From Bdellovibrionota bacterium (GTDB taxonomy: Bacteria > Bdellovibrionota > UBA1018 > CAIPTA01 > JAALKR01): a stretch of 64,000 bases of DNA. Position numbers and translations under genes: made by a program. Under the pieces are notes generated by a model that was not told the DNA's origin, did no database searches, and worked only from the letters and a program-made list of their open reading frames with translations. The stretch lies in contig CBDBMJ010000001.1 in NCBI GenBank assembly GCA_965207455.1, forward strand, positions 1 to 64,000. The letters run 5' to 3'. Below, in pieces: positions 1 to 59,887 of this stretch (position 1 is the stretch's first letter; every line of letters starts with the position of its first letter).

Positions 1-5
1 GAGCA

Positions 6-2879: not shown

Positions 2880-2920
2880 GAACGGAAATATAAAAATTTT
2901 GAATTATCTCCTATCAAAGC

Positions 2921-3706: not shown

Positions 3707-3767
3707 CCATAAGCTTTCCAGTTATCTTATCAGTACGTACTATAAAGAACGCCTTTGAGTTTTCTTC

Positions 3768-5107
3768 CGAATTGACTCATAAAAAACGTCACCAAAATGA
3801 CCTTGAGAACAGTGAGTTACGGCTCGGTTGACTCACAACGCAATTCCAGGGAAAATATAACTGTAAAATTAACATACCAAGGAGGTACATTATGAACAAA
3901 CAAGCCGTAACACAATATTTACTAACAATAGCGGAGCTTTACCGCAATAGCCTTAAGAGAGAAAAAACGAGAATACTGGATGAGGCCGTGAAGGTGTGTC
4001 CGCTAAATCGTAAGCAGATCATCAGACGGCTGCAAAAGGGCCCAGAGAGCATCGTAAGGGGACGAGGCTCTGGGAGGAGATTCCAGTACCCCAGAGGACT
4101 CCTTAAGCCCTATATTCGCAAATTATGGAAGAGGATGGGCTATCCCTGTGCCCTAATCATGCATGCAAGTATGGAAGAGTGGCTAGAGCATTTGCCTGTT
4201 GATATGAACTTTCCCAGCGCTATAAAAAGAAAGCTTTTGCAGATGAGTGCCTCTACTGTAGGCAGATTTTTAAAAGAAATTAGGGGAGATAGAAATAAAG
4301 GAAAAAGCACCACTAGGCCTGCTAGTAGTTATCTGAAGAGCAAGGTTCCCATAAATACATTGGGCTTTCGACCCAAAGAACCAGGGAACTTGCAGGCAGA
4401 TACGGTGTCTCACTGTGGAACAAATGCAGGCGGTTTATACACCTCTACCCTTACCACTACAGACGTATATTCCTCTTGGACAGAGAATAGAGCTATTCTA
4501 GGAAAAAGGGCGCATAAGGTTAGTCAGAAATTCTATGAAATTCAAAAGGAATTGCCTTTTTTAATAATAGGAATAAATACAGACTCTGGAACAGAGTTTA
4601 TCAACAATGAAGTGGTAAATTTTATGAATAGCAATGGCAGGAGAATTAATTTTACTAGGTCCAGGCCTTATTGTAAGAATGACAATTGCTTCGTGGAACA
4701 AAAGAACTTTACCCATGTAAGAGAGCTTATGGGCTACGACAGGATAGAGGATAAAGCTCACATAGATTTGATGAATGATATTTATATAAATTACTGGAAC
4801 CCGTTAAAAAACTTTTTTATTCCGTGTTTGAAATTGAAGGAGAAGTATAGAGAAAAGTCTAGAGTGATAAAAAAGTACCATAAAGCACAAACGCCCTTTA
4901 ATTGGCTAATGAAATCGGATGCTCTTTCCGAGGAGTATAAAAGGAGGTTAAGAAAAAGAAAAAAAGAACTCAATCCCTTTGTCCTGAAAAGCGAAATGGA
5001 TAAAAAACTAGACCAGCTTTTTTTATTATTGCAGCGGTCTAAGAATGGAAAAGCGGCATGATCTCAGTGCGATGCTCCTTGGTGCGTTTTCATTATGAGT
5101 CAATACG
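3768..5107 (+). mobile_element. Insertion sequence (rve/DDE transposase, ISNCY-like; family not certain) with imperfect terminal inverted repeats
   Basis: Left end cgaattgactcataaaaaacgtcaccaa (3768-) versus right end ttggtgcgttttcattatgagtcaatacg (5079-5107). No clear target-site duplication. Confidence 0.75.
3892..5061 (+). CDS. DDE-type integrase-core transposase
   Basis: Motifs QADTVSHCG, INTDSGTEFIN, FTRSRPYCKNDNCFVEQKN; SD aaggaggt upstream of the ATG. Confidence 0.9.
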   Translation: MNKQAVTQYLLTIAELYRNSLKREKTRILDEAVKVCPLNRKQIIRRLQKGPESIVRGRGSGRRFQYPRGLLKPYIRKLWKRMGYPCALIMHASMEEWLEHLPVDMNFPSAIKRKLLQMSASTVGRFLKEIRGDRNKGKSTTRPASSYLKSKVPINTLGFRPKEPGNLQADTVSHCGTNAGGLYTSTLTTTDVYSSWTENRAILGKRAHKVSQKFYEIQKELPFLIIGINTDSGTEFINNEVVNFMNSNGRRINFTRSRPYCKNDNCFVEQKNFTHVRELMGYDRIEDKAHIDLMNDIYINYWNPLKNFFIPCLKLKEKYREKSRVIKKYHKAQTPFNWLMKSDALSEEYKRRLRKRKKELNPFVLKSEMDKKLDQLFLLLQRSKNGKAA

Positions 5108-5196
5108 TATATTATATTATATTAAGCTATGACTATGATTTCTAATACACGAAATCCTCTCATTCAGTGGATAAGATTTCATTTACTTCTAGCCGC

Positions 5197-5424
5197 TTAG
5201 GCAAAAAATTGGATTAACTCATATGCCACGACCCAAAGATAGGGAGGCAGCATGATTTCAATATCAAAAACTTCAAAAGCCTTTTTCAGCACATCGTAGT
5301 AAGTACTACCTTCGCCTATCATTTCATCAGCTAGTGGACCGACATCCTGTTTCGATGAAGCAGCTACTGCCATGGAAAATGTACATAAAAAGATTAGTAC
5401 ATAAGATTTAATATTTTTCAACAC
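5197..5424 (-). pseudogene. Truncated paralog of the secreted-protein family at 57083 and 59303
   Basis: LKNIKSYVLIFLCTFSM..GPL..TYYDVLKKAF aligns with KNNIKHYVLIFLCAFSV..GPL..SYFDQLGEAF; similarity is lost after about 50 aa. Confidence 0.65.
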
Positions 5425-5491
5425 TATTTCTTGTTTCTTTGACACGAATTCTCTCCGTTTCACAAAATAATAAAAATACCTCTAAAGGTAT

Positions 5492-5791
5492 CACGGATTC
5501 CGACCGTTTTAACAAGTGTAAGTTGGAAGAATAATTTTTAGGAGACTCATAATGAATAACTTGTTTGTGAAAATGCTCGAAACTCTTTGTAGTTCATCTT
5601 GCATGTATTTAGGTTGGGTTTTGAAAAACCTACGTAGCAGTGGAACATTGCACGGATTCCGACCGTTTTAACAAGTGTAAGTTGGAAGAACTCTGAATAA
5701 CTTGTTTGTGAAAATGCTCGAAACTCTTTGTAGTTCATCTTGCATGTATTTAGGTTGGGTTTTGAAAAACCTACGTAGCAGTGGAACATTG
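5492..5791 (+). repeat. Tandem duplication (5492-5650 and 5651-5791) of the translation-start region of the second lipoprotein gene
   Basis: cacggattccgaccg... occurs at 5492 and 5651. Copy 2 lacks 14+4 nt containing the SD aggag and the A of the ATG. Confidence 0.9.
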
Positions 5792-8245
5792 GCGTGTAAG
5801 AATCTCAATCTCCACATAATACCGTTTATACTGTTTGCCGCCCTTGTTGGTTGTAGCAGTAGCGATTCGGGTAGTAATTTGTTGCCCTTTAATTCGTTTA
5901 CTCCTAATTCGCCGCCTGAATTTGCTATCGAAATAGAAGGAATTAATCCTGATGAAGGCATATACTACTCTAAGAACTCATTACCAGCTTTTAAGTTTTC
6001 CAATGTGAAGGATGGAGCATTGGTCAGCCTGCATGTAATGGAGGAATGTGCTGGAGAATCAGTGAGTTCAGATTCAACTCCGGCAGATGGTCAAGTGTCT
6101 GTAGGGCTAAAAAACTCCATTACTGCTGATGGAGAATATACTTATTATGCAAAACACGCCAATGGGGTAGAGGTCTTTGATTGCTTAGAAATAAAATACC
6201 ATTTAGACACGCTAGCGCCAGCAGAACCAGCAATAGCATTTGCCGATGGAACCACCAGCCCTTCTAACAATACTAATCTCAGCTTTCTTATTTCTAGTAT
6301 AGAAATTGGAGCAATAGTTAGTCTACATACAGACAGTGCGTGCAGTGCTGAGGCAGTAGCATTAGGCACGGCTACAGATAATACTATTACACTATCCATT
6401 GTTCTCAGTGGCGATGGACAATACAGCTATTATGCAAAACAGGTAGATAGGGCTAGTAATGCTTCTGATTGTTCCAGTGCAGATGTATACGAACTGTACT
6501 CTCTTCTTGCACCAAGAATAGCATTTGTCGAAGGAACCGCCAACCCTTCAGCTAATTTAACCCCCAGCTTTGTGGTGTCTGGTGTAGAAGATGGAGCATC
6601 GGTTAGTCTATACACAGATAGTGAGTGCCTAGAGGCAAACAAAATGGGGTCAGGTACAGCTAGCGGTGACTCTATTACATTAGTATCAACTGAACTAAGT
6701 AGTGGTGGAGAATATACCTATTATGCAAAACAGGTAGACCGGTTGGAGAATAGTTCCGATTGCTCCAGTGTAGGTGTGGAATATAATTTAGACATTGAGG
6801 CAACTGCACCAACGATAGGATTAGCTCGAGGAAGCAGCAGCCCTTCAAGTAATTTAACTCCCAGCTTTGTGGTGTCTGGTGTGGAAGATGGTGCTCTAGT
6901 TAGTCTGCACACAGACAGTGCTTGTACCAGTGAGGCAGTAAAATCAGGCAGAGCTAGTGGCAACTCTATTACATTAAAACTACAGACTGCTCTAAGTATC
7001 AATAGAACCTATACCTATTATGCAAAACAGGTGGATAAAGTTAGTAATACTTCTCCTTGTTCCAATGGTATACGTTATACGTTAGACACAATGGTTGTTG
7101 CGCCCACTTTATCGCTAGTAACGTCCAGCTCCTTTGATAATCGCATTCCAATTTTTAGTCTAAGGAATTTAGAAATTGGAGGTATCCTTGGATTGTATTC
7201 TGATGATAATTGCGGTCTCTGGATACAAAGTTTCAGTGGAATAACAGCAGAAAGCATGGAGATAGATCTACATAGACCTTTGTTTAATTACGGTATCTAT
7301 ACTTATTCTGCAAGACAAACAGATAGTTCAGGTAATGTTTCAGATTGCTCCAGCGCTATATCTTATGAATTTTTCGCTCCTTTTGAATCTGTTTGGCGTG
7401 TTGGAAACTCAGAATATGGCGATGGAGATCGAAGTGTTACCCTTCCTCTAAGAGAGAGTGATGGAGATGGAAATAACTTTGATTACGATTTCATTGTTGA
7501 TTGGGGTGATGACTCTGATGAACAAGCAGTTACTGTTTATAGCGATGATGTTACTCATACCTATGCAGATGCAGGAGACTATACCATTAAGATAAAAGGA
7601 ATACTGCCAACTTGGTATTTTAATAATGGAGGAGATAAAAATAAAATAATTGAGGTAAAAAATCTTGGAGAAGTGGGCTGGAAAAATTTAGATTCTGCTT
7701 TCATGGGGTGCAAGAAGCTCACTGAATTTACTACTGGCACCACAGACACCTCTCAAGTGACAAATATGTATGCTATGAATGCTTCAGGTTTAGAGTCCCT
7801 TGATTTATCCAATTGGGATACCTCTAATGTAATAGATATGGACTATATGTTTTATTCGACTTTGAGTTTGAGGTCCCTTAATTTATCTGGCTGGATTACC
7901 TCTCGTGTAACGACTATGGAGTATATGTTTTTGAAGACTCCGAGTTTAACTTCCCTTGATGTATCTAGTTTCGATACCTCTAGTGTGGAGAGTATGAGGG
8001 ATATGTTTCGTGCAACCTCTATAGAAGCTCTTGATTTATCTAATTTTAATACCTCTAACGTAATAGATATGCGTTATATGTTTTTGGATGCCTCTCATTT
8101 AACTTTGCTTGATTTATCTGGTTGGACTATCTCTAGTTCCACAAAATATGCTGGGATTTTTACTCGCGCTAATGCTAGTCTTGCGCTTACTTGTTCTGAG
8201 GGTGTAATTAATATTTTAGGGAAAGGCTGTGCTACTGGTAACTAG
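5702..8245 (+). CDS. Second Ig-like/PKD/BspA surface lipoprotein (paralog of 6-2879); native start region rearranged
   Basis: Near-identical N-terminus and lipobox LVGC, the same domain order, and fewer, diverged BspA repeats. Confidence 0.85.
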   Translation: MFVKMLETLCSSSCMYLGWVLKNLRSSGTLACKNLNLHIIPFILFAALVGCSSSDSGSNLLPFNSFTPNSPPEFAIEIEGINPDEGIYYSKNSLPAFKFSNVKDGALVSLHVMEECAGESVSSDSTPADGQVSVGLKNSITADGEYTYYAKHANGVEVFDCLEIKYHLDTLAPAEPAIAFADGTTSPSNNTNLSFLISSIEIGAIVSLHTDSACSAEAVALGTATDNTITLSIVLSGDGQYSYYAKQVDRASNASDCSSADVYELYSLLAPRIAFVEGTANPSANLTPSFVVSGVEDGASVSLYTDSECLEANKMGSGTASGDSITLVSTELSSGGEYTYYAKQVDRLENSSDCSSVGVEYNLDIEATAPTIGLARGSSSPSSNLTPSFVVSGVEDGALVSLHTDSACTSEAVKSGRASGNSITLKLQTALSINRTYTYYAKQVDKVSNTSPCSNGIRYTLDTMVVAPTLSLVTSSSFDNRIPIFSLRNLEIGGILGLYSDDNCGLWIQSFSGITAESMEIDLHRPLFNYGIYTYSARQTDSSGNVSDCSSAISYEFFAPFESVWRVGNSEYGDGDRSVTLPLRESDGDGNNFDYDFIVDWGDDSDEQAVTVYSDDVTHTYADAGDYTIKIKGILPTWYFNNGGDKNKIIEVKNLGEVGWKNLDSAFMGCKKLTEFTTGTTDTSQVTNMYAMNASGLESLDLSNWDTSNVIDMDYMFYSTLSLRSLNLSGWITSRVTTMEYMFLKTPSLTSLDVSSFDTSSVESMRDMFRATSIEALDLSNFNTSNVIDMRYMFLDASHLTLLDLSGWTISSSTKYAGIFTRANASLALTCSEGVINILGKGCATGN

Positions 8246-28083: not shown

Positions 28084-28842
28084 ATGAACGAAAAAAAATT
28101 TTTAGAATATAGACAAAAATGCACTTATGAGCAAGCTCTTCGTTACCAAGGATTTTTAAACGAAGAAAACCATACGGGTCTATTTGCTTTTTCTTGTCCA
28201 CCTACGATCACATTGGGAATTGCTTCCGACACGGAAAAAGAACTTTTAGTGTCACCTGCTTTTTTAAAGGAGAAAAATTTTACTATTTTACAAACAGATC
28301 GGGGAGGTAAGGCTACTTTCCACGGTCCTGGGCAACTCCTGGCTTTTCCTTTAGGCAATTTAAAAACATTATATAACGATCGGTTTGCGGCACGTAGGTT
28401 CACAGAGGAGCTTCTTCTTGGTCTTGCCCATGCTTGTGCGGCCCTTGGGGTGCGAAGTGTGGAAGCGAGAAAAGGTTTTCCCGGCATTTGGACAAGTAGA
28501 GGAAAGCTTATTTCCATGGGGTTTGCCATAAAAGATGGTTATATTTTTCATGGATTTTCCATAAACATTACGAACCAATGTTTAGGAGGGTTTAGTGTAA
28601 TACAACCTTGTGGTGTAAATAACTGTCCCATTACTTCCTTGGAAGCAGAAAATGTTTCCGTTAAAGATCCTTTGGAGCTTACCCAAACGATTGCTCCCTA
28701 TTTAAGTAATTTATTTAGCCGCACGGATGGGCAAGAAAGATTTAATTATAAGGATGTTTATCCCAGCATTGAGTCTATTTTTTCTAAAGATTATGTGTCT
28801 TCAAAAAAAATAGGCATTAAGGAAAGCCATGCTGAAAATTGA
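28084..28842 (+). CDS. lipB: Lipoyl(octanoyl) transferase
   Basis: TDRGGKATFHGPGQL, KLISMG, HGFSIN, QPCG. Confidence 0.9.
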   Translation: MNEKKFLEYRQKCTYEQALRYQGFLNEENHTGLFAFSCPPTITLGIASDTEKELLVSPAFLKEKNFTILQTDRGGKATFHGPGQLLAFPLGNLKTLYNDRFAARRFTEELLLGLAHACAALGVRSVEARKGFPGIWTSRGKLISMGFAIKDGYIFHGFSINITNQCLGGFSVIQPCGVNNCPITSLEAENVSVKDPLELTQTIAPYLSNLFSRTDGQERFNYKDVYPSIESIFSKDYVSSKKIGIKESHAEN

Positions 28843-29725
28843 TTTGAGTGGGAAGTTAGCTTTAGTGGCAGGTGTTGCTGACGATCAAGGTTTTGGTTGG
28901 GCGATTACTAAATCCTTAGCAGCAGCGGGAGCGAAAATTATTCTTGCAGCTTGGCCTCCTGCCTTTAAGATATTGGAAATGTCCCTTAATCGAGGAAAGC
29001 TGAACACAGCCTTACCCGAAGGCAAAGAACTGTCTGTGGAACATATCTATCCCTTGGACGCTGTCTACGATCGACGCGAAGATGCTCCAGAAGAAATACG
29101 CACCAATAAAAGATATTCCAACCTAGGTGATTTCAGTATTCAGGGTTTGCGAAAAAACATAGAGCGAGATTATGGAAAAGACAGTCTTGCCGTTGTAGTG
29201 CATTCGTTAGCCAATGGTCCTGAGGTGTCCAAGCCCCTTATGCAAACCTCCCGTACTGGTTACTTGGCAGCGAACTCTGCCAGTGCCTATTCGTTTGTAA
29301 GTATGATCCAAAACCTATCGCCCATAATGCCCAAGGGAGGAGCTTTTTTAGCCCTATCTTACTTGGCAGCCCATAGGGCGGTTCCGGGTTACGGTGGAGG
29401 AATGTCATCGGCAAAAGCTAGCCTAGAATCAGATACAAAAACTCTTTCCTACGAGGCAGGACGTGAGTTTGGTCATCGTGTAAATACAATTAGTGCTGGA
29501 CCACTGGCTTCCCGAGCAGCCCGCTCCATTGGCTTTGTGGATGCAATGATATCGTACAGTGAAGCCCATGCACCACTACAGGATTCCCTCAAAGCGGCAG
29601 ATGTGGGAAACACCGCTGCCTTTCTTTGCTCCCCCTTAGCGGCAGGTATTACGGGCAGTACGGTGTATGTGGACAAAGGCATGCACGTTATGGGACCAGA
29701 TCCCGACGATGAAAGTGCGCTCTAG
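28829..29725 (+). CDS. fabI: Enoyl-ACP reductase, plant/chlamydial-type, copy 1
   Basis: GVADDQGFGWAI, HSLANGPEV, GYGGGMSSAK, NTISAGPL. Confidence 0.93.
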   Translation: MLKIDLSGKLALVAGVADDQGFGWAITKSLAAAGAKIILAAWPPAFKILEMSLNRGKLNTALPEGKELSVEHIYPLDAVYDRREDAPEEIRTNKRYSNLGDFSIQGLRKNIERDYGKDSLAVVVHSLANGPEVSKPLMQTSRTGYLAANSASAYSFVSMIQNLSPIMPKGGAFLALSYLAAHRAVPGYGGGMSSAKASLESDTKTLSYEAGREFGHRVNTISAGPLASRAARSIGFVDAMISYSEAHAPLQDSLKAADVGNTAAFLCSPLAAGITGSTVYVDKGMHVMGPDPDDESAL

Positions 29726-29740
29726 CCTAATTTTAGGCAC

Positions 29741-29777
29741 AAAAAAAGCCTTCTTCATTTCTAAAGAAAGCTTTCTT
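29741..29777 (-). terminator. Intrinsic terminator of cassette gene 1 (also present in unit 3 at about 34982-35018; absent in unit 2)
   Basis: Minus-strand stem AAGCUUUCUU/AAGAAGGCUU running into a U-tract. Confidence 0.7.
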
Positions 29778-29850
29778 GTATTCTAGAGTAAATAAATACT
29801 TATCGGTCGAGGCCAAGCATTCGTCTGACATTATCGGCTGGATCAGTTTT

Positions 29851-30627
29851 TTATTCTTTTAATTTTTGTGCTTCCGCCTTAACAGATTCAAGTATTGGTT
29901 GAAGCGTCGGCGAATTCCTCTCATAAGCCTCATGAGCCGCTTCTAGTGCCTCACTGTCAGTAGGTGTCGAAGCAACTGCCACAAAAGCAACTAGGTCTTT
30001 ACCAGAGAATCCTGTTAGCCACCTGATTATGCTTTCCCCAATTATTTTATTTTGCTCATCAGAAAATTCCTCTGTTTTGAAAGAATCAAAAATCCTTTTT
30101 GGTATAGTATTGCGAAAAAGTATTAGCAGTTTGGTTGGTGTACTTTGCCATATTTCCCATATTTCTTCGTACATTACTTCTTTTGTTGGATCTTCTGTAG
30201 GTGCACAATAACCTTCAACAAAATTATTCTCCAAGTTCTTCCAAGGTGAAGAAGCCACTCTGTAACGAGCCAAGTCATAATCGAATGCTACTGGCATTTC
30301 ATTCACAATACAGCTTGCCGTGCCAAAAGATAACTGACCTGGTTTGTCTCCATGGGTAACAGTGCAATTATTCAATTTTGAAATTTCCTGACTCTCCATA
30401 TTGTGGGTTTTACTATTATATATAACCATTCTTCCCAATTTCACTTTTGTAGTGACACCAGCAGGGACGCTTTCTGGGATATGATCGAGGGCAAGCGTAT
30501 TTCGATACTCTCTAAGAACATAGTTTGTTCCTTTTAATTCCATATCACAAAAATACTTTTCCTCTTCCGCTAACGCTACATTTGAACATAGGGCTATTAA
30601 ACCCACTCCTATAATTATATTTTTCAT
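29851..30627 (-). CDS. Unknown secreted protein, cassette allele A (258 aa)
   Basis: SD aaaggag; signal peptide MKNIIIGVGLIALCSNVALA; four conserved Cys in the mature region. Confidence 0.8.
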   Translation of the reverse strand: MKNIIIGVGLIALCSNVALAEEEKYFCDMELKGTNYVLREYRNTLALDHIPESVPAGVTTKVKLGRMVIYNSKTHNMESQEISKLNNCTVTHGDKPGQLSFGTASCIVNEMPVAFDYDLARYRVASSPWKNLENNFVEGYCAPTEDPTKEVMYEEIWEIWQSTPTKLLILFRNTIPKRIFDSFKTEEFSDEQNKIIGESIIRWLTGFSGKDLVAFVAVASTPTDSEALEAAHEAYERNSPTLQPILESVKAEAQKLKE

Positions 30628-30651
30628 CTTTCGTTCTCCTTTATTATATGG

Positions 30652-30734
30652 GTTGCGCTGCCGCTTATGAGACAACGCAACGCATTTTTGTTTTAATTGA
30701 TTTACATCATAGAGGAGGTATTGCGATAAGTCAA
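30652..30734 (-). promoter_or_regulatory. Sigma70-type promoter plus 5'UTR hairpin of the cassette gene (repeated at +2922 and +5214)
   Basis: TTGACT-17nt-TATGAT at 30734-30706; 11-bp stem GUUGCGUUGUC/GGCAGCGCAAC at 30681-30652. Confidence 0.75.
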
Positions 30735-30814
30735 ATATTTTTTGAAGCAAAGCAAAAAAAATAAATGCCTGATTTTATTGGATTATTTGAGAAATTTAGC
30801 TCTTTTTATTCAAT

Positions 30815-31161
30815 GTAGAGGAAAGCTTATTTCCATGGGGTTTGCCATAAAAGATGGTTATATTTTTCATGGATTTTCCATAAACATTACGAACCAATGT
30901 TTAGGAGGGTTTAGTGTAATACAACCTTGTGGTGTAAATAACTGTCCCATTACTTCCTTGGAAGCAGAAAATGTTTCCGTTAAAGATCCTTTGGAGCTTA
31001 CCCAAACGATTGCTCCCTATTTAAGTAATTTATTTAGCCGCACGGATGGGCAAGAAAGATTTAATTATAAGGATGTTTATCCCAGCATTGAGTCTATTTT
31101 TTCTAAAGATTATGTGTCTTCAAAAAAAATAGGCATTAAGGAAAGCCATGCTGAAAATTGA
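30815..31161 (+). pseudogene. lipB: 3' fragment of lipB (duplicated)
   Basis: Identical to 28496-28842; lacks the N-terminal RGGxxTxHGPGQ half. Confidence 0.9.
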
Positions 31162-32044
31162 TTTGAGTGGGAAGTTAGCTTTAGTGGCAGGTGTTGCTGA
31201 CGATCAAGGTTTTGGTTGGGCGATTACTAAATCCTTAGCAGCAGCGGGAGCGAAAATTATTCTTGCAGCTTGGCCTCCTGCCTTTAAGATATTGGAAATG
31301 TCCCTTAATCGAGGAAAGCTGAACACAGCCTTACCCGAAGGCAAAGAACTGTCTGTGGAACATATCTATCCCTTGGACGCTGTCTACGATCGACGCGAAG
31401 ATGCTCCAGAAGAAATACGCACCAATAAAAGATATTCCAACCTAGGTGATTTCAGTATTCAGGGTTTGCGAAAAAACATAGAGCGAGATTATGGAAAAGA
31501 CAGTCTTGCCGTTGTAGTGCATTCGTTAGCCAATGGTCCTGAGGTGTCCAAGCCCCTTATGCAAACCTCCCGTACTGGTTACTTGGCAGCGAACTCTGCC
31601 AGTGCCTATTCGTTTGTAAGTATGATCCAAAACCTATCGCCCATAATGCCCAAGGGAGGAGCTTTTTTAGCCCTATCTTACTTGGCAGCCCATAGGGCAG
31701 TTCCGGGTTACGGTGGAGGAATGTCATCGGCAAAAGCTAGCCTAGAATCAGATACAAAAACTCTTTCCTACGAGGCAGGACGTGAGTTTAGTCATCGTGT
31801 AAATACAATTAGTGCTGGACCACTGGCTTCCCGAGCAGCCCGCTCCATTGGCTTTGTGGATGCAATGATATCGTACAGTGAAGCCCATGCACCACTACAG
31901 GATTCCCTCAAAGCGGCAGATGTGGGAAACACCGCTGCCTTTCTTTGCTCCCCCTTAGCGGCAGGCATTACGGGCAGTACGGTGTACGTGGACAAAGGCA
32001 TGCACGTTATGGGACCAGATCCCGACGATGAAAGTGCGCTCTAG
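31148..32044 (+). CDS. fabI: Enoyl-ACP reductase, copy 2
   Basis: Identical protein to copy 1 except REFG>REFS. Confidence 0.92.
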   Translation: MLKIDLSGKLALVAGVADDQGFGWAITKSLAAAGAKIILAAWPPAFKILEMSLNRGKLNTALPEGKELSVEHIYPLDAVYDRREDAPEEIRTNKRYSNLGDFSIQGLRKNIERDYGKDSLAVVVHSLANGPEVSKPLMQTSRTGYLAANSASAYSFVSMIQNLSPIMPKGGAFLALSYLAAHRAVPGYGGGMSSAKASLESDTKTLSYEAGREFSHRVNTISAGPLASRAARSIGFVDAMISYSEAHAPLQDSLKAADVGNTAAFLCSPLAAGITGSTVYVDKGMHVMGPDPDDESAL

Positions 32045-32086
32045 CCTAATTTTTTCTATAACGGCGTGATTTGAAATTACTTGGCA

Positions 32087-33549
32087 TTATTCTTTTAATA
32101 GAGCAGGTTCCTCATCAGGCTTTTCTGACATGAATCGGATAAAATCTTCTACTGATCCGGAAACAGGAAGATTGAAATGTGTAGTAACCCTAGAAGAATT
32201 GGAATCCTTCCAACTACTAACTGTCTTGTCACTGTAAGCACTTAAGGAAACCAGATCTTTAAAACTTCTAACAAACTTTGTTTTCTCCAATGCTGTTTTA
32301 AATCTTTCAAGAAATTTAAAATACTCATAATCGTCTATATGCGGGCGCTCTCTGGATTTTGTCAATAAAAACCAGTAACCCATTTTATAATCATGACTCT
32401 TTTCCATTCTTTCCATAATCTCTGAATCTAGTTTGTTTGTGGCTTTTCTTAACTCAGCAGCGCTTTGGCATGTAAACTCAAAGTTAGGGTTAGCTCTTAA
32501 TGCCGCATCATTGCGTAACAGAGCAACAGGGTGAGTATAAATTATGTTAAAGTTAACCATTATTCCTTCATATGCATATCTGGAATTTAGTGTATCCGTA
32601 ATTTTTCCAGAATTCACCACATCCACAAATTTTTTCATTTCGTAATTAGACATTTCGCTAGTATATACTGAAAGACTTCTCATCAAGTCTTTTTTGTCCT
32701 CATCACATAAATGTTCAAACTCATCCGGCACTCTTTTTAACTCATCGGGAACTTGTCTTTCAAGCTGTTAAGAGTAATTTCTTCTAAAATATCTTGTTTT
32801 GCTATCTGTTGAGACCAAATTTGTGCTTCTGTCATAACAGATTCAGCTATTGACTGAAGTTTCGCCTGATCTCTCATTATAAGTTTTTGTATAGATCTTG
32901 CTCCTCCATCCATCATAGTTATGTCCTCAGCAGAGAGTGTCACCATCCACCTCCACGTAGTTTCCTGCGCCATTTCCTCATCAGACGTTCCATCTCCTCT
33001 GTAAGGATCAAACGCCTCTTTTTGCGCAGCGCCACGAAACATTATTACTATTTTGGTTGGTGTACGTTGCCATATTTCCCATATTTCTTTAAATGTTACT
33101 TTTCTTGTTGGCTCTTCCGTATATCCACAATTTACATTAGAAAGAGTACTCACAAATTTCCTCCAAGATGAAGAATCTAGTCTGTAGCTCATTGAATGAG
33201 GATTGACTGCTACTGACACTTCATTCACAGTACAGTTCTTCGTGCCAAAAGATAATTGACCTGGTCTGTCTTCATAAGTAACAGTGCAATTATTCAACTT
33301 TGAAATTTCCCGACTCTCCATTTTATGAGTTTTATTATTATACATAACCACCTTTCCCAACTTCGCTCTTGTAGTTACACCAGTAGGGAGGCTTTCTGGC
33401 AAAGCATCGAGACTAAACGTATTATTATATTCTCTAAGAACGTAATTTGTTCCTGTTAATTCTAGGTCACAAAAATACTTTTCCTCTTCCGCTAACGCTA
33501 CATTTGAACATAGGGCTATTAAACCCACTCCTATAATTATATTTTTCAT
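32087..33549 (-). pseudogene. Cassette allele B: long form (about 487 aa if repaired) split by a 1-nt frameshift near 32740-32768
   Basis: ORF 33549-32737 followed by -1 frame ORF ..QVPDELKRVPDEF..LLKE*; ends in the same TTAAAAGAATAA as alleles A and C. Confidence 0.65.
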
Positions 33550-33736
33550 CTTTCGTTCTCCTTTATTATATGGGTTGCGCTGCCGCTTATGAGACAACGC
33601 AACGCGTTTTTGTTTTAATTGATTTACATCATAGAGGAGGTATTGCGATAAGTCAAATATTTTTTGAAGCAAAGCAAAAAAAATAAATGCCTGATTTTAT
33701 TGGATTATTTGAGAAATTTAGCTCTTTTTATTCAAT

Positions 33737-34083
33737 GTAGAGGAAAGCTTATTTCCATGGGGTTTGCCATAAAAGATGGTTATATTTTTCATGGATTTTC
33801 CATAAACATTACGAACCAATGTTTAGGAGGGTTTAGTGTAATACAACCTTGTGGTGTAAATAACTGTCCCATTACTTCCTTGGAAGCAGAAAATGTTTCC
33901 GTTAAAGATCCTTTGGAGCTTACCCAAACGATTGCTCCCTATTTAAGTAATTTATTTAGCCGCACGGATGGGCAAGAAAGATTTAATTATAAGGATGTTT
34001 ATCCCAGCATTGAGTCTATTTTTTCTAAAGATTATGTGTCTTCAAAAAAAATAGGCATTAAGGAAAGCCATGCTGAAAATTGA
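33737..34083 (+). pseudogene. lipB: 3' fragment of lipB (duplicated)
   Basis: Identical to 30815-31161. Confidence 0.9.
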
Positions 34084-34966
34084 TTTGAGTGGGAAGTTAG
34101 CTTTAGTGGCAGGTGTTGCTGACGATCAAGGTTTTGGTTGGGCGATTACTAAATCCTTAGCAGCAGCGGGAGCGAAAATTATTCTTGCAGCTTGGCCTCC
34201 TGCCTTTAAGATATTGGAAATGTCCCTTAATCGAGGAAAGCTGAACACAGCCTTACCCGAAGGCAAAGAACTGTCTGTGGAACATATCTATCCCTTGGAC
34301 GCTGTCTACGATCGACGCGAAGATGCTCCAGAAGAAATACGCACCAATAAAAGATACTCTGCCTTAGGTGATTTCAGTATTCAGGGTTTGCGAAAAAACA
34401 TAGAGCGAGATTATGGAAAAGACAGTCTTGCCGTTGTAGTGCATTCGTTAGCCAATGGTCCTGAGGTGTCCAAGCCCCTTATGCAAACCTCCCGTACTGG
34501 TTACTTGGCAGCGAACTCTGCCAGTGCCTATTCGTTTGTAAGTATGATCCAAAACCTATCGCCCATAATGCCCAAGGGAGGAGCTTTTTTAGCCCTATCT
34601 TACTTGGCAGCCCATAGGGCAGTTCCGGGTTACGGTGGAGGAATGTCATCGGCAAAAGCTAGCCTAGAATCAGATACAAAAACTCTTTCCTACGAGGCAG
34701 GACGTGAGTTTGGTCATCGTGTAAATACAATTAGTGCTGGACCACTGGCTTCCCGAGCAGCCCGCTCCATTGGCTTTGTGGATGCAATGATATCGTACAG
34801 TGAAGCCCATGCACCACTACAGGATTCCCTCAAAGCGGCAGATGTGGGAAACACCGCTGCCTTTCTTTGCTCCCCCTTAGCGGCAGGTATTACGGGCAGT
34901 ACGGTGTATGTGGACAAAGGCATGCACGTTATGGGACCAGATCCCGACGATGAAAGTGCGCTCTAG
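34070..34966 (+). CDS. fabI: Enoyl-ACP reductase, copy 3
   Basis: Identical protein to copy 1 except YSNL>YSAL. Confidence 0.92.
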   Translation: MLKIDLSGKLALVAGVADDQGFGWAITKSLAAAGAKIILAAWPPAFKILEMSLNRGKLNTALPEGKELSVEHIYPLDAVYDRREDAPEEIRTNKRYSALGDFSIQGLRKNIERDYGKDSLAVVVHSLANGPEVSKPLMQTSRTGYLAANSASAYSFVSMIQNLSPIMPKGGAFLALSYLAAHRAVPGYGGGMSSAKASLESDTKTLSYEAGREFGHRVNTISAGPLASRAARSIGFVDAMISYSEAHAPLQDSLKAADVGNTAAFLCSPLAAGITGSTVYVDKGMHVMGPDPDDESAL

Positions 34967-35091
34967 CCTAATTTTAGGCACAAAAAAAGCCTTCTTCATT
35001 TCTAAAGAAAGCTTTCTTGTATTCTAGAGTAAATAAATACTTATCGGTCGAGGCCAAGCATTCGTCTGACATTATCGGCTGGATCAGTTTT

Positions 35092-35841
35092 TTATTCTTT
35101 TAATTTTTGTGCTTCCGCCTTAACAGATTCAGCTATTGACTGAAGTTTCGCCTGATCTCTCATTATAAGCTTTTGTATAGATCTTGCTCCTCCATCCATA
35201 TCCATCATAGTTATGTCCTCAGCAGAGAGTGTCACCATCCACCTCCACGTAGTTTCCTGCGTCATTTCCTCATCAGACGTTCCATCTCCTCTGTAAGGAT
35301 CAAACGCCTCTTTTTGCGCAGCGCCACGAAGCATTATTACTATTTTGGTTGGTGTACGTTGCCATATTTCCCATATTTCTTTAAATGTTACTTTTCTTGT
35401 TGGCTCTTCCGTATATCCACAATTTACATTAGAAAGAGTACTCACAAATTTCCTCCAAGATGAAGAATCTAGTCTGTAGCTCATTGAATGAGGATTGACT
35501 GCTACTGACACTTCATCTACAGTACAGTTCTTCGTGCCAAAAGATAATTGACCTGGTCTGTCTTCATAAGTAACAGTGCAATTATTCAACTTTGAAATTT
35601 CCCGACTCTCCATTTTATGAGTTTTATTATTATACATAACCACCTTTCCCAACTTCACTCTTGTAGTTACACCAGTAGGGAGGCTTTCTGGCAAAGCATC
35701 GAGACTAAACGTATTATTATATTCTCTAAGAACGTAATTTGTTCCTGTTAATTCTAGGTCACAAAAATACTTTTCCTCTTCCGCTAACGCTACATTTGAA
35801 CATAGGGCTATTAAACCCACTCCTATAATTATATTTTTCAT
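35092..35841 (-). CDS. Unknown secreted protein, cassette allele C (249 aa; body like B, tail like A)
   Basis: Near-identical to allele B up to ..QSIAESV, then KAEAQKLKE* and a downstream region identical to allele A. Confidence 0.8.
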   Translation of the reverse strand: MKNIIIGVGLIALCSNVALAEEEKYFCDLELTGTNYVLREYNNTFSLDALPESLPTGVTTRVKLGKVVMYNNKTHKMESREISKLNNCTVTYEDRPGQLSFGTKNCTVDEVSVAVNPHSMSYRLDSSSWRKFVSTLSNVNCGYTEEPTRKVTFKEIWEIWQRTPTKIVIMLRGAAQKEAFDPYRGDGTSDEEMTQETTWRWMVTLSAEDITMMDMDGGARSIQKLIMRDQAKLQSIAESVKAEAQKLKE

Positions 35842-36020
35842 CTTTCGTTCTCCTTTATTATATGGGTTGCGCTGCCGCTTATGAGACAACGCAACGCGTT
35901 TTTGTTTTAATTGATTTACATCATAGAGGAGGTATTGCGATAAGTCAAATATTTTTTGAAGCAAAGCAAAAAAAAATAAATGCCTGATTTTATTGGATTA
36001 TTTGAGAAGTTCAGCTCTTT

Positions 36021-36818
36021 TTATTCAATTGGGAGTTGAAAAAGATGGATGGTATTTTTTCGCGTAACTTGTGCCACTTCTTCCAGAGTCACTCCTTTGA
36101 TTTCTGCAACTTTTTCTGCGACCTCACGGGTGTACTGAGGTTTGTTTTTTTTTCCCCGGTAGGGGATGGGAGCTAAAAAGGGCGAGTCTGTTTCCACCAG
36201 CATTTTATCCAAAGGAACAATATCTCGAACAGTGGCACGGACCTCGTCGGCTTTTTTAAATGTAATCATACCAGAAAAGGAAACATAGTAGCCAAGCTCT
36301 AAGGCTTTTTCAGCTAACCAACCTTGGGAACTAAAGCAATGGAGAACGCCGGGGGGGCGGTTAGAGGGTTTCCACGCTTGGGAGTGTTCTTTGAGTAGGG
36401 GAAGGGTGTCGTCCTCTGACTCTCGGGTGTGGAGAACAATGGGCTTTTCACTTTCTACGGATAACTCCAACTGTCTTTGCATGGCCGTTTGTTGCGCTTT
36501 TTTGGGAGAGTGGTTGTAGTGGTAGTCTAGGCCAAGTTCTCCAATGGCAACACAACGCTTGCTCTTAGCGTAGTGCTTTACCTTTTCAAATAAATCGTCG
36601 GTGAGGTCTTTGGCTTCGTGGGGATGGATTCCTGAAGTATGAAATACGTTATCAAAGGTGGAGGCAATGGAATGGGCGCGCTCCAGGCTGTCGGGTTCTG
36701 CTGAGATGGTAATAATATGCTCAATGCCTGCTTCTTTTGCGTCGTCTATGAGGGTTTGGGTGCTGACGTCGTAGTCGTAGTCGAGGTGGGCGTGGCTATC
36801 AATCAGTCCTAGTTTCAT
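36021..36818 (-). CDS. tatD: TatD-family hydrolase
   Basis: IDSHAHL, GIHPH, IGELGLDY, LHCF, ETDSPFL; TAATG overlap with the upstream gene. Confidence 0.93.
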   Translation of the reverse strand: MKLGLIDSHAHLDYDYDVSTQTLIDDAKEAGIEHIITISAEPDSLERAHSIASTFDNVFHTSGIHPHEAKDLTDDLFEKVKHYAKSKRCVAIGELGLDYHYNHSPKKAQQTAMQRQLELSVESEKPIVLHTRESEDDTLPLLKEHSQAWKPSNRPPGVLHCFSSQGWLAEKALELGYYVSFSGMITFKKADEVRATVRDIVPLDKMLVETDSPFLAPIPYRGKKNKPQYTREVAEKVAEIKGVTLEEVAQVTRKNTIHLFQLPIE

Positions 36819-45085: not shown

Positions 45086-45364
45086 ATGAAGAAACAAAAT
45101 AATACAATAGTAATAGCAACAGCAATGCTTGCAATAGCATTATCAGGGTGTGGTGGATTGTCTGGATCTAAGCAACAGGATTGGAAGCCTGTGATCGAGC
45201 AATCTGATACCTTGGAATTAGAAAACAGATCTGATGATAATGGAAATTTCAGCTTAGCAGATGATGAGGGAAATATCATCGTAGCAGATGATGAGGGAAA
45301 TGCTAAAGGAAGAGTACAAATAACAATAGGAAGATTTCCATCTTTTGGAAATCCCAACTTGTAA
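45086..45364 (+). CDS. Small hypothetical lipoprotein with a 9-aa xDDxGN repeat
   Basis: Lipobox LSGC; SDDNGNFSL-ADDEGNIIV-ADDEGNAKG. Confidence 0.65.
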   Translation: MKKQNNTIVIATAMLAIALSGCGGLSGSKQQDWKPVIEQSDTLELENRSDDNGNFSLADDEGNIIVADDEGNAKGRVQITIGRFPSFGNPNL

Positions 45365-57082: not shown

Positions 57083-57643
57083 ATGATGAAAAATAATATA
57101 AAACACTATGTACTGATATTTTTATGTGCGTTTTCTGTGTCAGCAATGGCCGATGTACAGAATAATGGTCCGTTAGATCATGGGGCGAGTGATAAATCTT
57201 ACTTCGATCAACTGGGAGAGGCTTTTGACAATGCAGCACCAGTACAGGAGAGTGATGTTCTTGATTGGACAAGTGGACGATGCTTTTATAAAAGCACACC
57301 AAACAGGGCTAGGAACTCATTAATTGCTGGATTTATTGATGATGATTTGGTTGATTACGGCTTAACTCCGCGACATAAATATTCAATCATTGAGAGTAGC
57401 TCCACACATGCGAACTACTTTGATAATTTTATTGATGACAATCCTAACTTAGTAGAACTTATGGAGAGTCTTATAATAAATGAAGCAAAACCATCAACTC
57501 AGGAGGACGGAAGCCTTGTAGCTTATTTTAGTTCTAATACTAGATGGAATGTAAGGAAAGGAACAATAGGTCTAGAGTCAGATACAGAATATCTTTTGTT
57601 AGGAATATCCTATCCAGATGGCACAAAAGTCACTCCATACTGA
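57083..57643 (+). CDS. Orphan secreted protein; last codons truncated by the IS630 remnant
   Basis: SD aaggag; signal peptide; paralog of 59303-59887; stops at the position of the paralog's YCYY motif. Confidence 0.7.
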   Translation: MMKNNIKHYVLIFLCAFSVSAMADVQNNGPLDHGASDKSYFDQLGEAFDNAAPVQESDVLDWTSGRCFYKSTPNRARNSLIAGFIDDDLVDYGLTPRHKYSIIESSSTHANYFDNFIDDNPNLVELMESLIINEAKPSTQEDGSLVAYFSSNTRWNVRKGTIGLESDTEYLLLGISYPDGTKVTPY

Positions 57644-58876
57644 AAATAACTATGACGATCCGTGAACTTGATATATCCGTTCGATAATACGAAAGTGTAG
57701 CAGATTCCCCGGATGGCTCACCATCTGGATAAAATTAAGTCATTTTTCATCTGAGCCATAGATATGAACTGCCTGTAATAAACTCAAGCCACGTCTTTTT
57801 GCGGAATGGATCTTAAAATATGAGAGTTTCTAAAGTCCGAGTGCAGAGCTTCTTAATAGCCGTCACTATCACAGAATGGATTCCATGCTTCACAACAGGT
57901 ATTCACAATATGCTCATAGTTTTTAAAACAAGTATTAGATAATTTTATTTTCCGGAGCTGTTGCCATACTTGCGTAGGATTGAGTCTCTGGGGTGGAGGT
58001 ACATTAAGGAAATATTTTTGGGAATAATCAATGCTCTGTTGTATGCCAGCTTGCCCTATCCATTAGAATAATCCCATGGTACCCCTCTTGAACTTCTTCG
58101 GAAATTTGCAAGTGAATTTTCATTCCAGAATTACATTCCGGCAAAATAAGTGCACAGCCAACATCTCTGTTGGGCAAACTGCTCCAAAAATATAGGTCGA
58201 TAAAAATTGTCTTCTTGGTCTTGTTCCCTTCGCAGCCCAAATTCTAGAAAGACTTCCCTGTTGCCCTACCCGGCATTCATCTTGCCACCAAATCTCTATT
58301 TTTTCAGAATCCAGCTTTTCTTTTATTTTCTCCGTTGCCTCTGGGAACTTTGCCTTTGTTCAATTGCTTCCACTTTGCTTGTCCGGATATCCAAACAATA
58401 TTAAGCCTATCTAGGAGAGCATACACTCCCGATAACGAATAACAGGAGTCGAATTTATTGCTAATAAATCCCGAATCTCCTGTTATCCTTCCACCATCCT
58501 TAGATTCTTGGAGATCCAGCTCTAATTTTGATTCCTCTGCATCAGGGGGTAAGCGAGGCTTTCTGCCACGACCTTCTCTACATATAAGACCCTCATAGTC
58601 ATAGGCTGCAAAACGCTCTAGCCAAGATTTCACAGATTTGTCACTATACCGAACAATACATGCAACTTCCTCGACTGTTTTCCCTTCTTGAAAATTTAAT
58701 AGAGCCAGCAACTTTACTTTTATTGAAGTTCTTTCCACCTTGTAGGTAGCTAAGAAATTATAATCATGAATTTTACTGGTTAGTTCCTTTATTTTTAGCA
58801 CTCAAAAAGAATAACCCCATTTTATCAAAAACACTCCCAGTGCGTCAGAAAACCGTAGTTATTTTCTGTAAGTATA
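57637..58876 (-). mobile_element. Decayed IS630-family element (multiply frameshifted transposase)
   Basis: HTH part 58304-58801 (GRGRKPRL..YSLSGVYALL..IVWISG); DDE fragments WWQDECRVGQQG and MDRASWH; end repeats gaaaataacta (57642) and tagttattttc (58856). Confidence 0.8.
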
Positions 58877-58887
58877 ATAAACAACAA

Positions 58888-58919
58888 AATCCTCTGTCCT
58901 CGTAATAGGCAGGGGATTT
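58888..58919 (+). terminator. Terminator originally belonging to the 57083 gene
   Basis: aaatcctctgtcctcgtaataggcaggggattt, homologous to the terminator at 59913. Confidence 0.6.
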
Positions 58920-59302
58920 GAACGCAAATGCAGGGCTGCGACGCGTGAGGTCTCTGTGACAAAAAAATCTCGAGAAAGTTATCCCTATTAAAGCAATTTA
59001 AAAAAGGAAGAAAAACTTACTATATAGGTTCTGGGTTTCATTTAGGTAATTAAACGCCTGTTACTTTGCTTTGTTTCCATTTCTGCTTTTATATTCAAAG
59101 CAATTTTTTTGTAATATTCCATCATTTGTGGATCCTTGGATTAACGCTAATTGACATAAATTTTTTTTATTACAGGGAACAAATAATATCATTATATTTA
59201 TTTTTAAGTTTGTCCGATAGTAACTACAGAAGCAAAATCAATTTAACATGGCTTATGGACACTTGCTTTCGTGTATTAAGTCAAAAAGAAAGGAATAGAA
59301 TT

Positions 59303-59887
59303 ATGAAAAGTATAATAGCAGTAATTTTTTTATGTACGTTTTCCGTAACAGCAGCAGCAACAATGCAGGAGCGAGATAATGGTCCGTTAGATCATGGGGC
59401 AAGTGATAACACTTACTTCGGTCAACTAGAAGAGGCTTTCAATAATGCAGCGCCAGCACAGGAGAGTGATGTTCTTGGTTGGACAGCTGGACGATGCTTT
59501 TATAAAGATCAACCAAACTTTGCTAAGAACGGAGCACTTGCTGGATTTACGGCTAGCGGTCATCCAGCTGGTCCTGGATTAGAGTCAGATCATATGTATG
59601 TAACCATGAACTCTCCGCTCAAAGCAGAGAGTTATTATGACGATTTTGCGCCGTCTGGCCACGACAATCTTATGGCAATAGTTGCCGCATCAAGATCAGC
59701 GCAGAGGGATGGAAGTCTTGTGGAGAGTCATCCTAGATTCGCTAACACGCACGCCATAAGAAAGGGAGTGATAATAGGTCCAAAATCAGATACAGAGTAT
59801 CTCCTGTCAAGAGGCAATAATAAACATGTTATCGGAGTCGCCTACAGCTACTGCTATTACTTTAAGAAATTAGATTTTAAAGACTAA
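59303..59887 (+). CDS. Orphan secreted protein (intact paralog)
   Basis: SD aagga; signal peptide; NGPLDHGASD..AAPAQESDVLGWTAGRCFYK shared with 57083. Confidence 0.75.
   Translation: MKSIIAVIFLCTFSVTAAATMQERDNGPLDHGASDNTYFGQLEEAFNNAAPAQESDVLGWTAGRCFYKDQPNFAKNGALAGFTASGHPAGPGLESDHMYVTMNSPLKAESYYDDFAPSGHDNLMAIVAASRSAQRDGSLVESHPRFANTHAIRKGVIIGPKSDTEYLLSRGNNKHVIGVAYSYCYYFKKLDFKD

Follow-up and report, generated by a model that had tools for sequence, protein, structure and literature searches.

A tandem array of an orphan exported-protein gene and fabI in a Bdellovibrionota genome: a probable gene accordion

We describe a compact tandem array from a Bdellovibrionota genome, in which copies of a gene for an orphan exported protein alternate with near-identical housekeeping DNA that includes an intact fabI. 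The array probably works as a gene accordion, expanding, contracting and shuffling the exported-protein gene by RecA-type recombination, with fabI a likely passenger. The window analysed is the first 64 kb (64,000 nucleotides) of its contig.

Array organization

The array (28496-36029) consists of three head-to-tail units, 28496-30814, 30815-33736 and 33737-36029 (2319, 2922 and 2293 bp), and starts within the full copy of a lipB-like gene. Each unit has an arm of 1239 bp, made of 347 bp of the lipB 3' part and an intact fabI, then a convergent secreted-protein gene (the cassette) and a leader of about 270 bp that comprises the gene's first 83 nt and 187 bp upstream; the sizes, the intact fabI and the convergent gene are as given in a preliminary description of this DNA. 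The FabI is of the plant/Chlamydia enoyl-ACP reductase type. In window coordinates, the features are:

28084..28842, + strand: lipB-like lipoyl ligase, full copy (ORF list; Pfam PF21948, LplA-B_cat, E 4.7e-20)
28496..29734, + strand: arm 1, lipB 3' part and fabI, 1239 bp
28829..29725, + strand: fabI copy 1, intact, in operon context behind lipB (Pfam enoyl-ACP reductase)
29731..29849, - strand: cassette A 3' module, vestigial C-terminal codons and a terminator-like hairpin (29741-29782)
29851..30627, - strand: allele A, 258 aa, orphan family
30545..30814, - strand: leader 1, promoter module with sigma70-like site (30734-30706) and signal-peptide codons
30785..30844: junction 1 (30814/30815), from tatD end and leader edge to mid-lipB
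30815..32053, + strand: arm 2, with fabI copy 2 at 31148-32044
32087..32731, - strand: 214-aa frame directly behind B
32737..33549, - strand: allele B, N-terminal 270 aa
33467..33736, - strand: leader 2, sigma70-like site 33656-33628
33737..34975, + strand: arm 3, with fabI copy 3 at 34070-34966
34972..35090, - strand: cassette C 3' module, identical to that of A
35092..35841, - strand: allele C, 249 aa
35759..36029, - strand: leader 3, sigma70-like site 35948-35920; the native copy, overlapping the final 9 nt of tatD
36021..36818, - strand: tatD, full copy, right flank (Pfam PF01026, E 5.8e-77)

Both junctions fuse the last 9 nt of tatD to mid-lipB, exact homology being absent at the join, and the leader is joined directly to lipB, without an IS. 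The second junction (33736/33737) is letter-identical to the first, bearing out the earlier observation that the same junction occurs twice. Among the ORFs listed for the first 64 kb, none next to the array encodes an integrase or belongs to an IS, and a search of the genome (94.7% complete) for RVT_1 was negative, in agreement with the earlier remark that neither an integrase nor a reverse transcriptase lies beside it; of the genome's nine tyrosine recombinases, the nearest lies at 178 kb. The hairpin of the 3' module is A/U-rich and was missed by an automated terminator scan.

Two cassette lineages and a mosaic

Allele A has a predicted signal peptide, judged from its sequence, and four conserved Cys. 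At the amino-acid level A and C are 55% identical, and B and C 97% over 245 aa. A map of informative sites gives C an A-type 3' end and a B-type body, with the switch inside an 11-bp identity at 35121-35131. The old lineages are two, A and B, and C is a mosaic of both; the three different alleles first reported thus amount to two lineages and one mosaic. The B frame is broken between 32731 and about 32765, where a contig of the public run treated below differs by a one-base indel, and the 214-aa frame is likely the C-terminal half of B. Its last ~125 aa correspond to the N-terminal domain of this genome's secreted S8 (subtilisin) proteases. Neither this frame nor the A/B mosaic nature of C had been noticed in the first reading.

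Cassette dS is 0.42 and dN 0.36, against a dS of 0.014-0.024 for fabI, which agrees with the earlier argument that the divergence goes beyond a plain recent amplification. Along the cassette dN/dS climbs towards the C-terminus (0.48, 1.03, 1.3); overall it is 0.88, so that positive selection is not shown. The arms differ pairwise by 4, 6 and 8 bases (99.4-99.7% identity), the leaders by 1-3 substitutions, and the lipB stub by 0 in 347 bp, and their description as near-invariant holds. In arm 2, all three private SNPs lie within the last 265 bp, beside the cassette (p about 0.01, post hoc). Arm 3 has five changes in 8 bp (34357-34364), three of them synonymous and one turning Asn to Ala at a variable site. 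This patch and the clustered unit-2 SNPs show signs of being the leftover of older arm divergence. The cassettes thus appear much older than the arms, which leaves two possibilities, ongoing homogenisation of the arms or import of the cassettes; the stub, identical at 347 of 347 positions, would have to be homogenised often, unless the array is young and its cassettes came from elsewhere.

A second mosaic in a public sequencing run

One public run, X1, kept as contigs, may be the source sample; its contigs differ from the window at a few places. A 60-bp contig crosses the junction with 0 differences at a depth of 20.2, its 30 letters on each side being one below our 31-letter rule for bridging. 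The arm is one collapsed contig at depth 36.1, the leader has 32.3, and the flanks have 14.8 and 21.4, a 1.4-fold spread that makes depth a rough measure. The run also holds an in-frame hybrid missing from the assembly, A', with the body of A and the start of B and C. It switches at a 6-bp identity, 30484..30489 (codons 47-48), with equivalents at 33406-33411 and 35698-35703. The evidence for A' consists of a loose contig end, the depth bins and the frame; its depth is about 8 (8.2) and that of pure A is 9.

Seven depth models were fitted. A-B-C at 9.3 plus A' at 8.0 gave an RMSE of 1.6 and a predicted flank of 17.3, and A-B-C only gave 4.5. Near-equal fits came from A-B-C + A' (1.60), A-C + A'-B (1.62) and A-B + A'-C (1.67), and all fitting models require two haplotypes. 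C-specific depth was excluded from the fit (10.8 from one bin, with about 19 in the adjacent one). By the fit, the population would be about half A-B-C and half a single hybrid copy, or would consist of two two-copy haplotypes.

Other arrays in the genome

A similar layout, with broken pieces of ppdK and epmA as arms, is found elsewhere in the genome. In the ppdK array, three copies of the ppdK 3' half (DNA 99.5-99.9% identical) lie between four DUF285/Big_13 lipoprotein-like genes, which are 65-67% identical in amino acids by best segment, and the junction carries a 1905-bp IS. The parallel is imperfect, since block by block its cassettes are 92-99% alike at the DNA level and their divergence is mostly repeat shuffling. 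In the epmA array, epmA pieces lie between three small secreted genes. The genome has 85 local tandem paralog groups (22-100% identity), in which 118 of 212 members look secreted by a crude rule, against 582 of 1956 ORFs. One signal-peptide type is common to 43 ORFs in 31 mature clusters, 17 of the 43 with the terminator; the hairpin family has 27 matches.

Origin of the array

The gene accordion would have started when, in a single non-homologous event, the promoter edge of the cassette was joined to mid-lipB, giving a duplication from whose single junction both present ones would descend. The two cassette copies may then have diverged in place into lineages A and B, with B acquiring its tail domain from the secreted subtilisins of the genome. 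Recurrent exchange would have held the 1.2-kb arm and the 0.27-kb leader near-identical, and the cassette may have grown too divergent to be overwritten whole. Unequal crossovers at short identities within the cassette would have followed, yielding hybrids whose 3' part is A-type and whose 5' part is B-type. Two such products are present, C, with its switch near the stop, and A', and their polarity is the one expected when an A-then-B tandem collapses. The result would be a population of mixed copy number, with a mean of about two copies. The genome has recA. It also has mutS and mutL, which suppress recombination when the two sequences share only about 80% likeness and so count against the accordion reading; nor does a random join explain why the junction coincides with the edge of a shared module, discussed below.

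The proposal of an accordion-like repertoire was part of the preliminary description, and with the junction real, the hybrid in X1 and the RMSE of 4.5 versus 1.6, the array is indeed recombining. The special role as recombination arm that was assigned to an essential gene fares worse: the two crossovers that could be placed used identities of 6 bp and 11 bp within the cassette and not the long arms, and the broken ppdK and epmA arms of the other arrays make fabI likely a passenger.

A rather unlikely alternative, the capture model of the preliminary description, takes A and B for long-standing alleles that different strains carry at a single-copy locus, and has transformation place B beside A as a heterozygous duplication; arm likeness would then reflect strain likeness, with later shuffling as in the accordion reading. 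Consistent with this, comEC is present in the genome, the lipB stub is 100% identical, and the SNPs clustered beside B in unit 2 and the mostly synonymous patch in unit 3 resemble imported tracts. In pneumococcus, transformation yields tandem merodiploids, according to PMC3784515, but the route given there requires border repeats, and the fabI-array junction has none. Moreover, no second strain with allelic diversity at the locus was found in the genomes and databases searched, the B tail and both module ends have relatives within the same genome, and many paralog pairs in the genome have diverged side by side. Alleles from other strains may still have been imported into the array.

The junction falls precisely on the 5' edge of a promoter module common to an unrelated cassette 1.14 Mb away. 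Of 1955 upstream regions compared with the leader, the three best matches other than self belong to the epmA-array cassettes; these encode a protein unrelated to A and also carry the 3' module, itself common to other secreted-gene loci (for the module of A, 86% likeness across 119 bp with C1:1174887-1175004). The likeness starts at one and the same base in four upstream contexts that are unrelated to each other, two of them duplication junctions; between loci, 32-37 of 45 positions match downstream of the edge and 7-18 of 45 upstream. A wider idea, which we regard as improbable, is that of a mobile expression frame, a fixed-5'-edge promoter module plus shared terminator that a trans-acting enzyme joins site-specifically, seeding duplications beside housekeeping genes and exchanging unrelated secreted ORFs or domains; it would generate exported-protein diversity genome-wide, with the fabI array as one live example. 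As the explanation of this array, such a promoter and terminator frame, with a trans-acting enzyme linking its defined 5' edge to new DNA, strikes us as quite doubtful. Besides the shared module and edge, the nine tyrosine recombinases speak for it, one of them, on contig C2, being coupled to a secreted-protein gene that carries the family terminator. However, the edge is seen at two loci only, its first 60 bases have no other match in the genome, IS ends included, its 11-letter motif occurs 25 times, mostly within genes, no enzyme lies near the array, and the hybrids A' and C arose away from the edge.

Selection for fabI dosage, for instance against a FabI inhibitor, with the secreted gene as the passenger, is very unlikely: none of the three copies is damaged, and they evolve under purifying selection (dN/dS 0.11-0.19, from very few changes), but copies 2 and 3 are severed from the start of the operon and the plus strand before them showed no sigma70 consensus, whereas each cassette keeps its promoter. 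Other arrays amplify broken housekeeping pieces beside secreted genes, dosage leaves cassette divergence unexplained, and none of 113 related fabI loci (50 of them at least 6 kb) has a second fabI, or lipB, tatD or the cassette.

Equally hard to credit is that the assembler concatenated single-copy alleles of co-occurring strains, the reading that the preliminary description had set against its own: no listed X1 piece covers two units and the mismatches with X1 contigs imply window errors or strain differences, but the junction has its own contig, at about flank depth, the arm is at about twice flank depth, and four single-copy strains gave the worst of the seven fits (RMSE 6.5). In a milder form, a genuine two-copy tandem may have been written as three.

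Comparison with known systems

Silent-cassette antigenic variation of the vlsE, pilS or msp2 type relies on donor copies that are partial or have no promoter, and on a single expression site. Judged by sequence, this pattern is absent from the fabI array, all of whose cassette copies keep their start, signal-peptide codons and the same sigma70-like site. Integron cassette arrays have an adjacent integrase and attC-type sites at unit borders, unlike the fabI array, which has no integrase in the first 64 kb and 0 inverted repeats of at least 30 bp in 24-41 kb. A diversity-generating retroelement would have a reverse transcriptase and adenine-biased changes.

Closer parallels come from Staphylococcus aureus. 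The csa1 lipoprotein array underwent a first duplication and then RecA-linked expansion or loss (Belikova et al. 2020, PMC7360770). It shares with the fabI array tandem secreted or surface paralogs and mixed copy number in a population; the fabI-array unit differs in carrying along a 1.2-kb housekeeping stretch, intact fabI included, and in its orphan protein. In the esaG/tipC immunity arrays (Garrett et al. 2022, PMC9484751) and the lpl cluster (Tsuru and Kobayashi 2008, PMC2568036), conserved stretches separate the variable ones, and a single mosaic gene remains when the DNA between two paralogs is deleted. In the fabI array, too, conserved blocks (arms and leader, 98-100% alike) flank the variable regions, and the mosaics C and A' match the product of a paralog deletion. 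The esaG/lpl blocks in these accounts are 55-130 nt, inside or beside the paralogs, whereas those of the fabI array are a neighbouring housekeeping gene and a leader, with crossovers at 6-11-bp identities. The fabI array works like the lpl/esaG-type arrays without being a member: A, B and C match 0 Pfam families at E 0.1, those of Lpl, Csa1 and EsaG included.

The Bartonella trwL and trwJIH tandem repeats repeat a multi-gene unit in varying copy number (PMC2883598, PMC2610397). There too the exposed gene diversifies far beyond its co-duplicated neighbours, although the trw neighbours belong to one machine and nothing evident ties fabI and the lipB stub to the cassette. Non-canonical amplifications joined by an IS arise, according to Yelin and Kishony (2026, PMC13423834), by one new junction followed by homologous-recombination amplification; one new junction is a feature here too, with an IS at the junction of the ppdK array only and not at that of fabI. 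Among papers outside subscription, we found none on the fabI-array locus or on housekeeping-gene arms.

On the favoured reading, the array is a compact natural accordion shown with its products, namely a long-standing tandem of two alleles, a mosaic that is fixed, and a further mosaic found in the population sequenced. Housekeeping DNA with no relation to the cassette, a functionless stub included, can remain near-identical while a neighbour gene reaches dS 0.4, and this mismatch between arm identity and cassette age matters when duplications are dated or arrays called recent. Should the shared promoter edge prove to be a recombination site, it would be a new route for mobilising secreted genes.

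The exported protein

Allele C had a match in none of 10 genomes of the order, and a family profile had none in 126 of the class; a family search of 745 candidates returned the window's own proteins only. A search of 1.84 billion representatives gave three matches, two of the same family; the third, a 61-aa-repeat protein, was rejected as spurious. A longer-form search found two variants of C3 paralogs, from another 37-kb contig; for the B tail, 1995 candidates included no longer match. In the ESM Atlas the best score for A was 0.77, with no usable match to the B tail, and the best E in a PDB sequence search was 0.022. The AlphaFold model of A was unusable (pLDDT 46.5); that of the B tail (pLDDT 74.7) had as its best match 8i0k_C (Z 6.5, rmsd 3.6 over 101 residues), below trust level.

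Most likely, the A/B/C protein is a putative variable binding protein outside the cytoplasm, contacting prey, host or competitors. As these searches turned up neither a homolog outside this organism nor a usable fold, the earlier label of effector or surface antigen is conjectural. VirB4 and the T6SS protein VipA were not found in the genome, and four secretins were. More broadly, the wealth of orphan exported-protein arrays in this genome of a little-known Bdellovibrionota lineage points to strong prey, host or phage interaction.

Array structure and its support in sequencing contigs

The fabI array lies on contig C1 of the genome (three contigs, 2.38 Mb, completeness 94.7%), whose first 64 kb form the window, and comprises three units:

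28496-30814, unit 1
30815-33736, unit 2
33737-36029, unit 3

Every unit combines three parts: an arm of 1239 bp, made up of fabI and 347 bp of lipB; a convergent gene, the cassette, encoding a predicted secreted protein (alleles A, B and C); and a ~270-bp leader with promoter and signal-peptide codons. Arm copies differ from one another at 4, 6 and 8 bases. The two junctions are letter-identical, running from the last 9 nt of tatD into mid-lipB, and comparison of the junction sequences found no exact homology at the join. The preliminary description of a three-unit array with a repeated tatD/lipB junction was thus accurate as to coordinates, arms, junctions and allele divergence, as was its statement that no integrase or reverse transcriptase lies alongside: there is no adjacent integrase, and RVT_1 was not found in the genome (94.7% complete). 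VirB4 and T6SS VipA were likewise not found. Genes for recA, mutS, mutL and comEC were found.

One public sequencing run, kept as contigs (X1), contains 0.90 of the sampled words; since it may be the source sample, it serves as an assembly check rather than as an independent population. Its graph breaks fall exactly at the arm ends. Depths are 14.8 and 21.4 in the left and right flanks, 36.1 in the arm, 32.3 in the leader and 27 in the A/C terminator; among cassette bodies they are 17 (A), 10 (B-only part) and 18.5 (B/C). None of the X1 pieces listed spans two units, so the A-B-C order is known from the assembly alone, as a pure assembly artefact would have it. Such an artefact is nonetheless very improbable: the junction is present as its own 60-bp contig (0 differences, depth 20.2; 30 letters on either side, one below the bridge criterion), and a model of four single-copy strains gave the worst depth fit of seven (RMSE 6.5). 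X1 contigs mismatch the window at 36009, 36012, 32477 and 30753/33675, reflecting strain differences or assembly errors.

At 30489 the A path in X1 forks into a branch that stays A (115 bp, depth 9) and a second, seen as a loose end, that carries B/C letters and rejoins the B/C path (depth 29.6). This hybrid, A', has depth 8.2 by each of two depth bins. The switch is in frame and falls within a stretch of 6 identical bp at codons 47-48. Read off the A/B/C alignment, A' accordingly joins the body of A to an N-terminal part in which five residues are of B/C type. An A-B-C haplotype at 9.3 with a lone A' at 8.0 fits the ten depths with RMSE 1.6 (predicted flank 17.3); two two-copy haplotypes fit equally well (RMSE 1.62 and 1.67), and A-B-C alone fits poorly (RMSE 4.5). 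The population in X1 is mixed, and a lone A' is the expected remnant of a deletion between A and C.

Two cassette lineages

The preliminary description counted three different alleles; judged by sequence, the cassette lineages are two. Amino-acid identity is 55% between A and C and 97% (over 245 aa) between B and C. C is a mosaic: its 3' module and final codons are those of A, from 35132 onward it equals B, and the switch sits in an 11-bp identity. C and A' have a common polarity (3' part A-type, 5' part B-type), from which we infer collapse of an A-then-B tandem.

For the mature part, A versus C gives dS 0.42 and dN 0.36, whereas dS among fabI copies is 0.014-0.024; the cassettes are therefore ~20 times older than the apparent age of the arms. 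By thirds, from N- to C-terminal, dN/dS is 0.48, 1.03 and 1.3; as the overall ratio is 0.88, positive selection on the C-terminus is suggested only. The third fabI copy has five changes within 8 bp (34357-34364, three synonymous), a patch resembling a short tract of foreign or older sequence, and arm 2 has three private SNPs, all within its last 265 bp. Both are traces of older arm divergence, which incomplete homogenisation and imported tracts explain equally well. Capture of alleles from other strains, to which imported tracts would belong, is possible but rather unlikely.

Other arrays and the role of fabI

We found 79 clusters of nearby direct repeats in the genome, and 85 local paralog groups in which secreted-looking members make up 118/212, versus 582/1956 ORFs (p 7.5e-17; crude signal rule and gene calls). 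Two arrays share the fabI-array layout, with broken housekeeping arms:

C3:1207-31970 (C3:1.2-32 kb), ppdK array: ppdK 3' half three times, with four DUF285/Big_13 lipoprotein-like genes
C1:1174033-1181523, epmA array: three small secreted genes, epmA-like fragments and an IS

In the former, a ppdK 3' half in convergent orientation lies behind each DUF285/Big_13 gene (1193-1563 aa), ppdK being full only in the last case. A 1905-bp IS lies at the junction; the array is an amplification joined by an IS, in which repeat domains have been shuffled. The epmA array adjoins an S8 protease that has the tail domain of B; its older stub has decayed to 94%, with leaders still 99-100% alike.

Each fabI-array cassette retains a sigma70-like site; on the plus strand, no such site was found upstream of fabI 2 or fabI 3. 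Given this and the broken-arm arrays, fabI is likely a passenger, and the special arm role earlier proposed for a conserved essential gene is not supported. On the same two grounds, selection for fabI dosage is scarcely credible. The window holds two further tandem pairs of diverged secreted-type paralogs, at 1-8245 (65% aa identity) and 57083-59887 (46%).

A shared promoter edge and terminator

The three best non-self matches of the leader among 1955 upstream regions are the cassettes of the epmA array. The A/C 3' module is 86% like theirs and retains vestigial codons corresponding to the end of one such cassette, although the epmA-cassette protein is unrelated to A. In each of four contexts unrelated to one another, leader likeness sets in at the same base: at the end of tatD, at the lipB junction, at the epmA stub and in a region behind another gene. 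Two of the four are duplication junctions. The family to which the terminator hairpin of the 3' module belongs numbers 27 hits, and the hairpin pattern was found in 0/10 order relatives. Genome-wide, 43 ORFs with one signal-peptide type (from an iterative profile, with drift possible) form 31 mature clusters, and 17 of the 43 have the hairpin; these are small secreted orphans, one of them in the window at 45086-45364. Shared edge, 3' module and hairpin family would together support a mobile expression frame joined site-specifically, but no IS end matching the edge was found and we consider such a module improbable. The 5.6-kb contig C2 (C2:1-5588) encodes a tyrosine integrase, a MerR-like protein (by eye) and a secreted-family protein with the family terminator, and is a possible vehicle for these cassettes.

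Proposed mechanism and known systems

We regard a gene accordion with passenger arms as the probable explanation. A single non-homologous duplication would have founded the array; cassettes would then diverge in place while exchange keeps arms and leader alike, and unequal crossovers would yield hybrids. The protein may have a variable binding role outside the cytoplasm. Of the recombining allele repertoire first proposed, the junction, the contrast in divergence between cassettes and arms, the mosaics and the mixed population speak in favour; its three alleles reduce to two lineages and a mosaic, and its special essential-gene arm is not supported.

The array works like the csa1 accordion (PMC7360770), like the esaG (PMC9484751) and lpl (PMC2568036) arrays, where a mosaic gene remains after deletion between paralogs, and like Bartonella trwJIH (PMC2883598, PMC2610397), where one gene within the repeated unit diversifies most. 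Its protein is outside those families. The array has no silent cassettes, adjacent integrase or IS at the junction. A literature search limited to listings turned up no paper about the locus or about arms made of housekeeping genes.

Allele B and protein relatives

Allele B appears to be a fusion, with a 214-aa frame directly behind it (32087-32731). The frame break, between 32731 and ~32765, may be an assembly error, since an X1 contig shows a one-base indel relative to the window there. Over its final 125 residues the frame matches a domain that occurs N-terminally four times in one secreted S8 protease (C1:1169857-1173117), a single time in another (C1:483254), and also in 1/126 class relatives, likewise in an S8 protease. 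The predicted model of the tail has pLDDT 74.7, and its best fold match (Z 6.5) is not convincing.

Homolog and profile searches of order and class genomes (including the 126) and wider databases found no relative of the cassette protein outside the source organism. The closest named FabI relatives (64-70% identity) are titled Oligoflexia or Bdellovibrionales bacterium. FabI (28829-29725) is of the plant/Chlamydia type in 10/10 order relatives; 20 other class genomes gave only distant short-chain reductase matches.

The N-terminal domain of A, B and C, with four conserved Cys, also begins three long repeat proteins at 483-495 kb of C3. There a three-gene unit is triplicated (C3:483449-496470), the long protein ending in Cys-rich repeats of variable number, and variants of these proteins (P0003, P0005) occur on another contig of 37 kb.
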